In this document: positions 9,316-15,421 of the stretch, in pieces | How the letters are laid out: each line of letters starts with the position of its first letter | Numbering within the stretch: the first letter of the stretch is position 1 | Source: a virus | Lineage: Duplodnaviria; Caudoviricetes | Direction: 5' to 3' (one strand) | Length of the DNA: 57,823 nt | IMG/VR virus record: IMGVR_UViG_3300024520_000084 | Location: 1-57,823 of that record | Made by a program: the position numbers and the translations under genes | The notes under the pieces: generated by a model | The model's database searches: none | Told to the model about the DNA's origin: nothing | What the model saw: only the letters and a program-made list of their open reading frames with translations

Positions 9316-9574
9316 TTTTGACCCCCTCCATATTGCGGATAGTGGTGTTGTTGGCACGATTAAATCCTATAACAGGCAAAGCGTGAGTCTTAACAATGCA
9401 CGTGGTCATAAACTTGGGCATGTCGCAATCTTCCTCAAGATATAATGTGTCGCCATCTCTGTAGGAAAATGCACTGAAATCATCCGGCTCCAGCCCTATC
9501 TCAAAACAATCCGAAACAGGAACTTCTAGCCATCCGTGCGCTTTATCATGGTGGTGGGTGTATTCTTTTTGCAT
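9305..9574 (-). CDS. Hypothetical early protein (HGW...YLEEDCD family)
   Basis: D.AHGWL.V and LYLEEDCD motifs recognised from small phage/plasmid proteins; AAGGA RBS. Confidence 0.7.
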   Translation of the reverse strand: MQKEYTHHHDKAHGWLEVPVSDCFEIGLEPDDFSAFSYRDGDTLYLEEDCDMPKFMTTCIVKTHALPVIGFNRANNTTIRNMEGVKNVY

Positions 9575-9595
9575 TTGATTATCCTTTAAAAGTTA

Positions 9596-9635
9596 TTGAC
9601 CATGGGAGTATATGGTAGTACTGTAGCAAGGTCAA
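9596..9635. promoter_or_regulatory. Overlapping divergent promoters
   Basis: Minus strand TTGACC-17-TATACT; plus strand TTGACC-17-TACTGT; lies between divergent genes. Confidence 0.65.
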
Positions 9636-9657
9636 CAAGGTAATTTAAAGGTGTAAC

Positions 9658-9864
9658 ATGGAATACGAAATCAAAGATCAATGCCAAGAGTGTGAAGGCT
9701 TTGGAAAAATCGAACACCAGCGAAGCGAAACGCTGTTCTCAGTTTCGATTTGCCCCGAATGCGATGGTGAAGCATTTACCACGGTCCATGAAACATACGA
9801 CAGCATTCAAGATCTTCGCGCCGATTATCCAGATGCGATGGTTAAGGAAATGAAAAAGAGTTAA
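9658..9864 (+). CDS. Small DnaJ-type Zn-finger protein
   Basis: CQECEGFG and CPECDGEA; AAGGTG RBS. Confidence 0.7.
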   Translation: MEYEIKDQCQECEGFGKIEHQRSETLFSVSICPECDGEAFTTVHETYDSIQDLRADYPDAMVKEMKKS

Positions 9865-9952
9865 CTTTGAGGGAGTTGATGTGAGGCTAGCGTTGTGGTC
9901 ATCAGGGGAAACCCCCTAAAATAGATATTCTGCCAGTTCGTTCCCTCAAAGT
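9864..9952 (+). ncRNA. Putative structured regulatory RNA (c4/CI-like architecture)
   Basis: 11-bp closing stem ACTTTGAGGGA/TCCCTCAAAGT, inner stems, two segments complementary to 9973-9989. Confidence 0.5.
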
Positions 9953-9999
9953 GGTTGGTATCTTTGCGAACAAGAATATCGAACAACGCAACGAAGATG

Positions 10000-10036
10000 C
10001 CCCCTAGCCATTATCGTGGTTAGGGGGTTTTCTTTT
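10000..10036 (+). terminator. Rho-independent terminator
   Basis: CCCCCTAGCCA/TGGTTAGGGGG stem followed by TTTTCTTTT. Confidence 0.85.
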
Positions 10037-10045
10037 GCCGTTCCA

Positions 10046-10282
10046 TATATACAGGCGAAATGAAAAAAATGTTTTTGAAAATGAACTTTTGGACCTAAAA
10101 AAGTGTAAAAGTGTAACAAGCACTGAAAAACAGTAGCTAAGTTATTGAAATATACCAAAACTACTCGTAACACTACTCGTAACATGTCGTTACGTTTTAG
10201 GCTGTTTGGTTACACTTCACTAGCCGAGGACGTCCTTGAAATGATGGGAGACTAGGGTTAGTTTTGAAAAACGCTGTATATA
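10046..10282. repeat. Nested inverted repeats, candidate origin or packaging site
   Basis: TATATACAG/CTGTATATA and AAGTGTAAC/GTTACACTT share a centre near 10163; CTACTCGTAACA x2. Confidence 0.6.
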
Positions 10283-10293
10283 GGGGCAACCAG

Positions 10294-10878
10294 ATGAAAA
10301 GACGAATTGATACCAAAGCAGAAGAAATTGAGGACTCTTACGGCAGGAAACTGACCAACCGTCAAAAGACTTTTGCAAGACACTTTGTTGATGGCACGCA
10401 CTCAAATGCTGAGTGCGCGAGGAAGGCCGGATATTCCGACAAGAATGGAATTGCGAAGATCCAAGCGCATAAACTTTTGAACCCCAAATATTTTCCGCAC
10501 GTTGCGGAGTATGTTTTGGAACTGCGGGAGGAACGAGAACGAAAATATGGCGTCACCCTTATGGGGCAACTAAAACGGCTAAGAGATCTTTCCTTGGGCG
10601 CCGAAGAAACCGGACAATTCTCTGCCGCCATAAATGCTGAAAAAACAAGATCTGCTTTGGGTGGTTTAACTACTGACAGGCGAGAGACAAATCACTTCCA
10701 CGCTATCGAAAATATGAGCCGCGAAGAAATAGAAACCCGACTCACTGAATTGAGAAAGTCACACCCAAACGTCTTTGATGCAGATTATGAGGTAGTAGAT
10801 GGTGCAAAAACCGGAGGCAAACTTCTGGAAGAAACTAAGGGAGAAGATGCCGAAGAGTTGGCACACCACACGAATTGA
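10294..10878 (+). CDS. terS: Terminase small subunit
   Basis: LTNRQKTFARHFV...NAECARKAGYS...AHKLL HTH typical of the Terminase_2 family. Confidence 0.82.
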   Translation: MKRRIDTKAEEIEDSYGRKLTNRQKTFARHFVDGTHSNAECARKAGYSDKNGIAKIQAHKLLNPKYFPHVAEYVLELREERERKYGVTLMGQLKRLRDLSLGAEETGQFSAAINAEKTRSALGGLTTDRRETNHFHAIENMSREEIETRLTELRKSHPNVFDADYEVVDGAKTGGKLLEETKGEDAEELAHHTN

Positions 10879-13957: not shown

Positions 13958-15421
13958 ATGTTAAATGCGCCTGATGACATTGTACGTGAGGTTTTGGCTT
14001 TGGAGGAGGCGAAGAGCACTTTGGACCTTCGCCAACGGGCCAAGGACGATTTCATGGTATTTGTGAAGCATGTATATGATGGGTTTATAGAGGGTACGCA
14101 TCACAAGCAGGTTGCGGAGAAGTTTGAGAAGTTGTCCAAGAACCCCGGTTCACGGATCATTGTCAACATGCCGCCTCGTCATACGAAGAGTGAGTTTGCT
14201 TCTTATTTGTTACCGGCGTGGTTGATAGGGAAGAATCCTGAGTTAAAGATTATTCAGACGACGCATACGGCTGAGTTAGCTGTTCGGTTTGGGCGTAAGG
14301 TGAGGAATCTTATGGGGATGGAGATATACCGGCAGGTTTTTCCTGAAGTGGAGCTTCGAGCGGATTCCAAGGCTGCTGGCCGTTGGGAGACGGGTCAGGG
14401 GGGAGAATATTTTGCGGCGGGTGTGGGTGGTGCGATTACTGGCCGTGGTGCGGATTTATTGATTATTGATGATCCGCATTCGGAGCAGGATGCGTTATCG
14501 GAGACGGCTTTGGAGAATGCGTATGAGTGGTATACGTCGGGTCCTCGCCAGCGGTTGCAGCCTGGTGGTTCGATTGTTGTGGTAATGACGCGGTGGTCGC
14601 TGAAGGATTTGACGGGGAAGTTGATCAAGGCACAGGCTTCGGACGTGATGTCTGACCAGTGGGACATTATAGAGTTTCCGGCGATACTGCCGAGTGACAA
14701 CATCCTTTGGCCGGAGTTCTGGAAGAAGGATGAGTTGTTAAGGGTCAAGGCTTCGTTGTCTTTGAGCAAGTGGAATGCGCAATGGCAGCAGAATCCTACG
14801 GCGGAAGAGGGGGCGATTATCAAGAAGGAGTGGTGGAACAAGTGGGAGGATGAGACGATACCGCCGGTGAGTTACATTATGCAGAGTTACGATACGGCGT
14901 TTAGTAAGAAGGAGACGGCGGATTACAGTGCGATTACGACGTGGGGTGTGTTTCAGCCGGAGGAGGGTGGTGCGGATAATATTGTGTTGATGGATGCGAA
15001 GCGTGGCCGCTGGGACTTTCCTGAATTGAAGGCCAAGGCGATGGAGGAGTATGAGTATTGGGAGCCGGACATGGTATTGATTGAGGCCAAGGCTACGGGT
15101 ACACCGCTCACGGACGAGTTACGGCGCATGGGGATTCCGGTGGTGAATTACACGCCTTCGAGGGGAAACGACAAGCACACGCGGATGCATATGGTGGCAC
15201 CGATGTTTGAATCTGGAAAGGTTTGGGCCCCGGAGAAGCGTTTCGCGGAGGATGTGATAGATGAATGTGCTGCATTTCCTAATGGCGACTATGACGATTT
15301 CTGTGATAGTATGTCGATGGCGCTTATCAGATACCGTAAAGGCGGTTTTGTTCATCTTGACAGTGACGAGGAAGACAGCGAGTCTAGCTTTTCCTTACAT
15401 GCTTCGAGACAATATTATTAA
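13958..15421 (+). CDS. terL: Terminase large subunit
   Basis: MPPRHTKS Walker A, LLIIDDP Walker B, SYDTA, FPNGDYDDFCD nuclease motifs. Confidence 0.97.
   Translation: MLNAPDDIVREVLALEEAKSTLDLRQRAKDDFMVFVKHVYDGFIEGTHHKQVAEKFEKLSKNPGSRIIVNMPPRHTKSEFASYLLPAWLIGKNPELKIIQTTHTAELAVRFGRKVRNLMGMEIYRQVFPEVELRADSKAAGRWETGQGGEYFAAGVGGAITGRGADLLIIDDPHSEQDALSETALENAYEWYTSGPRQRLQPGGSIVVVMTRWSLKDLTGKLIKAQASDVMSDQWDIIEFPAILPSDNILWPEFWKKDELLRVKASLSLSKWNAQWQQNPTAEEGAIIKKEWWNKWEDETIPPVSYIMQSYDTAFSKKETADYSAITTWGVFQPEEGGADNIVLMDAKRGRWDFPELKAKAMEEYEYWEPDMVLIEAKATGTPLTDELRRMGIPVVNYTPSRGNDKHTRMHMVAPMFESGKVWAPEKRFAEDVIDECAAFPNGDYDDFCDSMSMALIRYRKGGFVHLDSDEEDSESSFSLHASRQYY

Follow-up and report, generated by a model that had tools for sequence, protein, structure and literature searches.

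Most of what is known about regulatory RNAs of phages comes from a handful of temperate model phages. In P1, the target of the c4 RNA overlaps the ribosome-binding site of the downstream icd gene, and in P4 the seqB segment of the CI RNA pairs with seqA and seqC. The available portion of one account describes c4 as an antisense RNA that is required for blocking ant expression in the immI operon (PMC8198154). In the accessible text of another, the CI and C4 RNAs are hairpin-like substrates of RNase P that are processed from longer transcripts, and processing of the c4 type yields a discrete RNA of ~70-80 nt (PMC5499578).

Here we analyze a locus in a phage group that is uncultured, marine and lytic-looking, at which a compact and constrained RNA element of 173 nt lies on the + strand (positions 9864-10036). 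Like the c4 RNA of P1/P7, this element has a stem-closed domain within an operon transcript, with two segments that are complementary, in order, to adjacent downstream sites. Unlike c4, it has no covariance-model match, its target is not at a ribosome-binding site and is followed by a terminator that appears to be constitutive, and neither an operon of the immI type (icd/ant) nor lysogeny genes occurred among the 30 ORFs scanned.

The likeness to P4 CI RNA, which is processed from a longer RNA, lies in pairing within a transcript beside a termination point; the present element differs in having only a downstream target, no detected homology and no effect of pairing on termination that we could find. 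With the trp and pT181/pIP501 attenuators it shares a possible short ORF, alternative helices and a final terminator, but it follows coding genes, has no conserved antiterminator, and its terminator forms in every state tested. The order of its helices, a-b-a'-b' starting at a stop codon, is that of the H-type pseudoknots of MuLV read-through and of the dnaX type. Unlike these recoding signals, it has a slippery heptamer that is absent from relatives, and alternative frames end within a few codons, with no extended product. Finally, lambda sib, hok and CpxQ-type elements likewise combine a structured 3' region shared with the operon terminator, long-range pairing, a masked Shine-Dalgarno (SD) sequence and, as a candidate feature here, dependence on translation of an upstream ORF (as in mok/hok). 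In contrast to these elements, the present one showed neither an antisense partner gene nor a peptide that is hydrophobic and toxin-like.

Genomic setting and parts of the element

The window, by which we mean the whole stretch of DNA analyzed, comprises all 57,823 bases of a complete virus record. By TerL, its nearest isolates are phage 023Pt_psg01, DSL-LC04 and the Pelagibacter phages HTVC027P/HTVC023P, at 60-65% identity. The leftward arm carries genes for DNA polymerase, primase, helicases and a methyltransferase, a PAPS-reductase-like gene, and an endolysin gene. In the rightward arm, a 68-aa Zn-ribbon ORF is followed by the element, a 230-nt non-coding region, terS (10264-10878), terL (13958-15421), the portal gene and structural genes.

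The Zn-ribbon ORF (9658-9864, + strand; two CxxCxGxx motifs) is the last ORF 5' of the element in the window and ends with TAA at 9862-9864. Its Pfam matches were all sub-threshold (DnaJ central domain, Anti-TRAP), and those in PHROG were weak and Q-like (E 7e-5 across 31 residues). We considered this ORF as a Q-type antiterminator and rejected the assignment: what backs it is weak zinc-finger matches, and the sequence matches of the ORF in PDB contain no Q protein. A profile search with the ORF returned two distant matches, which lie within a 615-aa ORF and are not accompanied by the element.

A sigma-70 scan recognized a leftward promoter at 9635-9607 (TTGACC-17-TATACT) and none for the rightward operon. 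The divergent control region is flanked by a perfect inverted pair, TTGACC ... GGTCAA (9594-9635), and is kept in the element-bearing relatives. A weak candidate for a rightward promoter, TTGACC-17-TACTGT, would overlap the leftward one face to face.

A first-pass annotation of this DNA had listed a closing stem, two inner stems, and two boxes with their downstream targets; direct reading of the sequence found all of them in place. The closing stem, P1, is formed by ACTTTGAGGGA (9864-9874), whose first base is the last base of the stop codon and whose 3' end is an SD-like GAGGGA (9869-9874), and by its exact 11-bp complement TCCCTCAAAGT (9942-9952), which contains the anti-SD TCCCTC. Inside P1 are a TGATG/CATCA stem (9877-9881/9900-9904), a candidate mini-ORF (9881-9919; GTG start, 12 codons, TAA stop at 9917-9919), the hairpin P2' (GGCTA/TGGTC, 9885-9900), and a GGGGAAACCCCC hairpin (9905-9916) in a variable region. 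The 6-nt loop of P2', GCGTTG, displays box 1 (GCGTTGT, 9890-9896), which is the 5' strand of helix H1. Box 2, GATATTCT (9924-9931), provides the 5' strand of H2, and GTTCGT (9936-9941), which abuts the 3' arm of P1, that of H3.

Beyond a linker (9953-9965) follow GCGAAC (9966-9971), which pairs with GTTCGT, the box 2 target AGAATATC (9973-9980), and the box 1 target ACAACGC (9983-9989). The two targets are separated by 2 nt, and the boxes are their exact 7-nt and 8-nt complements in antiparallel order; H1, H2 and H3 measure 7, 8 and 6 bp, respectively. An intrinsic terminator (9999-10036) starts 9 nt after the box target. It consists of a G+C-rich hairpin (-23.0 kcal/mol) with a 13-pair stem (9999-10028; 7 G-C pairs) and a 4-nt loop, followed by a TTTCTTTT tail, the T-tract reaching 10036. 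Taken as a whole, the element runs from a stop codon to a strong terminator.

Structure, conservation and distribution

The structure of the element goes beyond chance, which confirms it as a real structured RNA. The + strand fold had an energy of -70.2 kcal/mol (z -5.21), which none of 200 shuffles equalled, and the fold of the - strand had a z of -3.97. Of 1000 dinucleotide-shuffled versions of the 173 nt, 4 contained a perfect stem of at least 11 bp and 2 contained complements of at least 7 nt arranged as an ordered pair with adjacent targets; these frequencies are optimistic, the criteria having been chosen after the data had been seen. On the opposite strand, the G-U pairs that occur in P1, P2', H2, H3 and the terminator would turn into A-C mismatches; for this reason, and because the - strand folds more weakly, we assign the RNA to the + strand.

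A TerS search identified 127 relatives in IMG/VR, and 80 loci were kept. Single-sequence and profile nhmmer searches were run on 84 loci and then on later loci, and covariance model R1 was run on 83, 15 and 2 sources. Within IMG/VR the element was present in five contigs only (nhmmer; R1 on 83 sources, 466,542 bases), and one metagenome contig scan supplied two more carriers (L124 and L130), for a total of seven contigs besides the window and eight sequences. In the 75 other terS loci neither nhmmer nor the covariance model gave further matches, and exact-pattern scans of viral, metagenome and genome contigs otherwise returned the same contigs or chance matches. The other matches were chance ones as well (best model score 19 bits, E 0.06), and blastn of 9500-10400 against a phage collection gave no match.

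Among the 74 terS loci that have 600 nt of upstream sequence, the element is present in five, and these five are also the only ones with a strong + strand terminator upstream of terS, so the terminator travels with an accessory module. A sixth terminator match, in L077, sits inside a 156-aa gene (L077 2521-2991) inserted between the conserved repeat region and terS; the remaining 68 loci show none. In loci without the element (20 of the 80 were inspected), the divergent promoter region or other small rightward ORFs run directly into the conserved ATATATAC and the repeat region. From this distribution, the small ORFs, the RNA and the terminator make up an accessory cassette and not the general late-gene control of the group.

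The accessory operon of the relatives (L002-L006, L124, L130) varies by whole small ORFs. The types found upstream of the element are Cys-rich ORFs of 53-63 aa, a coiled-coil-like ORF of 61 aa (L004), and an HTH-like ORF of 104 aa (L130), and the extra small ORFs of the relatives matched no informative Pfam family. The sequence was found in 22 sequencing runs, none of which is listed as RNA. DNA contigs from other samples (runs X3, X4, X9 and X20) are near-identical to the window across the element stretch, and the window-type variant is therefore a standing lineage; among the differences listed, run contigs also carry variants like those of the relatives.

In the alignment of the eight sequences, mean column identity is 90%. 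All pair cells form standard pairs, both in the structure made of P1, P2' and the terminator (224/224) and in the box structure (264/264), where the sole change is U-A to U-G, caused by an A to G at one position of the box 2 target in six of the eight. P1 keeps its 11 pairs in every sequence, one of them occurring as G-C (three), G-U (three) or A-U (two). The five pairs of P2' are likewise kept in 8/8, two alternating between C-G and U-G, as are the 12 terminator pairs tested, with one UA to CG double change, and the six pairs between GTTCGT and GCGAAC. Box 1, box 2 and the box 1 target are each invariant in all eight. The linker varies in sequence and measures 13 nt in seven sequences and 14 nt in L006, and all indels are confined to unpaired parts.

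Variable columns number 1 of 42 in H1-H3 and 4 of 31 in P1 and P2' (5/73 for these helices together), 5 of 24 in the terminator, and 46 of 90 in unpaired parts. For comparison, 21 of 64 third codon positions in the neighboring ORF are variable. Fisher tests gave p 7e-5 for H1-H3 versus third codon positions and p 3e-10 for paired versus unpaired columns. Taken by itself, the invariance of H1-H3 is evidence that these segments are constrained rather than that they pair. When conservation and covariation were examined in these homologous loci, as the first-pass annotation had proposed, the pairs held in 8/8 and the covariation was thin: two pairs have double changes, and the observed score was reached in 21 of 500 shuffles for the P1 structure and in 65 of 500 for the box structure, controls that are not decisive because there are only eight closely related sequences. 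Three features of the window are absent from all seven relatives, namely the TGATG/CATCA stem, the GGGGAAACCCCC hairpin and an 11-nt match to the terminator arm; at the position of the hairpin, the relatives have a different sequence that is 9 nt longer.

Searches of the window and of the seven relatives found no Rfam family at gathering score. At E up to 10, a scan of 9500-10400 gave ten matches, with C4, c4-2 and isrK, the families named for this check by the first-pass annotation, not among them; what this permissive scan returned was terminator-driven noise only (PyrG leader, 21.5 bits; ctRNA_p42d, 18.9 bits). By these comparisons the element is a real, conserved and unclassified + strand structured RNA of narrow distribution and no catalogued family.

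Crossing helices and a proposed link to translation

P1 and H1-H3 cross and cannot nest; the element therefore adopts either two alternative folds or a pseudoknot of the H type. The strand 9924-9952 would pair first with 9966-9980 (H2, H3) and then with 9864-9874 (P1), and the helix order P1a-H3a-P1b-H3b, with a 13-14-nt loop opposite the 11-bp P1, fits such a pseudoknot. In a pseudoknot of P1 and H3, the linker 9953-9965 would be loop 3, spanning the 11-bp stem. RNAalifold favors the box fold. In single-sequence folding, the P1 fold was the minimum-energy structure in five of six sequences tested and was within 0.1 kcal/mol of it in L002; in these six of the eight, the two folds are 0-7 kcal/mol apart.

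The 5' end of the element is closely tied to the stop codon of the last upstream ORF. The final A of its TAA is the first base of P1 in five of the eight sequences, and in the other three the stop lies 6 nt earlier in the same frame. This placement holds although the upstream ORF differs, being a Zn-ribbon, a Cys-rich or a third ORF. The 5' arm of P1 carries GAGGGA or GAGGAA in 8/8, and P1 masks this SD-like motif, which is followed by a 6-9-nt spacer of variable sequence and by GTG (four sequences) or ATG (four). The frame of the mini-ORF has 12-15 codons and stops at the same aligned column in 7/8 despite a 9-nt (3-codon) indel; in L002, a 10-nt deletion extends it to 41 codons. Box 1 coincides with codons 4-6, and box 2 begins 5 nt past the stop. 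The predicted peptide is not a hydrophobic, toxin-like one. Those codons that vary all do so nonsynonymously and codons 4-9 show no nucleotide change, which suggests a constraint on the RNA rather than on the protein.

Two other coding possibilities were rejected. A frameshift or read-through reading fails on the heptamer G AAA AAG, which is not conserved, and ORFs conserved on the - strand are broken by 9-10-nt indels. The heptamer itself, a dnaX-like slippery sequence at 9852-9858 in the window, 5 nt 5' of P1 and missing from the relatives, is probably incidental because the -1 frame ends after 8 codons.

Our best explanation, held tentatively and at somewhat less than an even chance, is that the element is a translation-coupled RNA that controls the fate of its own accessory transcript, and not read-through into terS. 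It makes up the 3' end, conserved and structured, of a short accessory operon whose small ORFs are of the Zn-ribbon/Cys-rich kind; a small sub-clade carries this operon between the divergent promoter region and the repeat region before terS. Its 3' segment would pair with GTTCGT, box 2 and box 1 (H3, H2 and H1), with box 1 displayed by the P2' loop. A ribosome that terminates at the abutting stop must melt the 5' arm of P1, and we infer from this that the fold depends on whether the upstream ORF is translated; such coupling is proposed from the geometry of ribosome footprints. On a translated message, the masked SD would be exposed and the rod of H1-H3 favored; on an untranslated one, P1 would close. 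The terminator, if constitutive, would end the accessory transcript and insulate the downstream region. As output, one may consider transcript stability, processing to a stable RNA of 90-170 nt, or translation of the mini-ORF.

The features that set this element apart are the crossing helices, the abutting stop codon, the masked ribosome-binding motif and the lack of an Rfam family. If translation coupling is correct, the element would be a simple device found in nature that couples the passage of ribosomes along a gene to what becomes of the gene's transcript, and RNA family databases would gain a motif. If it is not, there is still an accessory cassette with its own terminator, which would shield the packaging/late control region. 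It is unlikely, in our judgment, that the element is a ribosome-actuated two-state RNA, in which the terminating ribosome flips the P1-closed fold into the box-paired fold and the 3' end serves as a translation sensor. Such a sensor would decide among three outcomes, namely retention of the transcript, its cleavage to a stable c4-like RNA, and re-initiation at the hidden mini-ORF, and it would constitute a regulatory RNA class without a catalogued family.

Other readings of the element

The mini-ORF could be a leader in its own right: with its SD masked by P1 and translation possible only through coupling to the upstream ORF, it would rearrange boxes 1 and 2 through the act of translation and not through its peptide. 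The SD-like motif, spacer and start codon found in all eight sequences, a start column that varies only between G and A, the shared stop column and the upstream stop abutting P1 are what such a leader would lead one to expect. The reading is nevertheless doubtful, as L002 loses the frame, the nonsynonymous changes beside invariant codons 4-9 point to the RNA level, and by our estimate chance could produce an open frame this short (12-15 codons) together with an SD-like motif that lies in a G-rich stem.

According to a reading of the c4/CI type, first suggested by the first-pass annotation, the 5' domain (~9864-9952) would be excised and, by binding the target boxes in the transcript of origin or in sister transcripts, would control whatever follows them. 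The architectural part of that suggestion stood: ordered 7-nt and 8-nt complements to adjacent targets are kept in 8/8, behind a closing stem, with box 1 in a hairpin loop and box 2 single-stranded, and the single variable column among the 42 of boxes, targets and H3 is as expected of mutually constrained antisense partners. The parallel would extend to processing, given that c4 and CI are RNase P substrates from longer transcripts in the accessible text of PMC5499578; c4 is required for the block of ant expression in the available portion of PMC8198154. The claim of homology was not supported, however, in view of the Rfam result. Furthermore, the target overlaps no ribosome-binding site or ORF start (no + strand ORF of at least 40 aa starts between 9864 and 10264, where the next one begins), the genome offers no second target (a search with the 17-mer, allowing up to 3 mismatches, returned its own site and nothing else), and the 30 ORFs scanned include no integrase, repressor, antirepressor or other lysogeny gene. 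No CCA follows P1, and the terminator is unaffected by the pairing. With these points on the other side, we think a c4-like RNA improbable here, though not strongly so.

We see a slim chance that the active part is instead the 3' end, that is, a trans-acting sRNA derived from the 3' UTR, comprising the A/C-rich 9966-9998, the terminator and the U-tail, directed at an mRNA of the host or the phage, with the upstream domain masking the seed. Hfq-type and 3'-UTR-derived sRNAs have an A-rich block followed by a terminator and a U-tract, and the element shows this layout: its strong terminator, which has a long U-tract, is directly preceded by an A-rich block that is conserved and single-stranded; on the other hand, the phage genome contains no target beyond chance-level matches of at most 12 nt.

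The helices are also inverted repeats in DNA, and the family is young and narrow. One could accordingly take them for nested DNA repeats for protein binding or recombination, or for a result of recent common ancestry without function. We hold either of these to be very unlikely, since helices contain G-T/T-G positions, folding is strand-asymmetric, paired columns are far less variable than adjacent synonymous sites, and indels occur in unpaired parts only.

There remains the terminator/antiterminator switch into terS that the first-pass annotation had proposed. The complementarities it named exist in the window: AAACCCCCTAA (9909-9919) is the exact 11-nt complement of TTAGGGGGTTT (10020-10030) in the 3' arm of the terminator, with which it pairs 11/11 at -16.5 kcal/mol, and GGCTAG (9885-9890) is complementary to CTAGCC (10004-10009) in the 5' arm (-8.1 kcal/mol). 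The best duplex of the inner domain with the terminator 3' arm reaches -19.7 kcal/mol in the window and -11.5 to -14.0 kcal/mol in the seven relatives, the terminator hairpins themselves having -20.7 to -25.5 kcal/mol, so that a strong competing helix is confined to the window. The 11-nt complement is specific to the lineage of the window because it depends on the window-specific hairpin sequence. In all eight sequences the terminator stem formed with a probability of 0.94-1.0 under three conditions (free, with the 5' domain masked, and masked through box 2), the value of the window (0.94-0.95) being slightly below those of the relatives. By this modeling the terminator is constitutive, and a small lineage-specific leak in termination is possible in the lineage of the window. 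With an antiterminator match missing from 7/7 relatives, a -23 kcal/mol hairpin that outcompetes it under every mask, and 68 of 74 terS loci that have the same downstream region yet no strong upstream terminator, we set the read-through switch aside as highly improbable, notwithstanding the two complementarities, the slightly lower terminator probability and the standing of the window variant as a lineage.

Between the terminator and terS lies the non-coding region 10037-10295, and the related terS loci that were inspected have conserved it. It contains nested inverted repeats (CCATATATACAG/CTGTATATAGGG and GTTTTTGAAAATGAAC/GTTAGTTTTGAAAAAC), two AAGTGTAA(C) copies facing GTTACACTT, and direct copies of CTCGTAACA. 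The two sides of a repeat box vary together from phage to phage: GTGTAAC/GTTACAC, GTGTACC/GGTACAC (L046), GTGGGAC/GTCCCAC (L055, L065) and GTGTTCC/GGAACAC (L062). The RNA fold of the region has a z of only -2.25, and the region looks like a set of candidate iteron-type sites, which might serve a phage-specific DNA-binding protein, pac/cos recognition by TerS, or an origin.

A TATATAGGGGCA-like motif (10275-10288), directly upstream of the terS start, mirrors ATATATACAGGC at 10045-10056 and may be a late promoter or the start of a leader. The same kind of motif occurs just before the first late gene in L076, L077 and L078, in L077 before the inserted gene.
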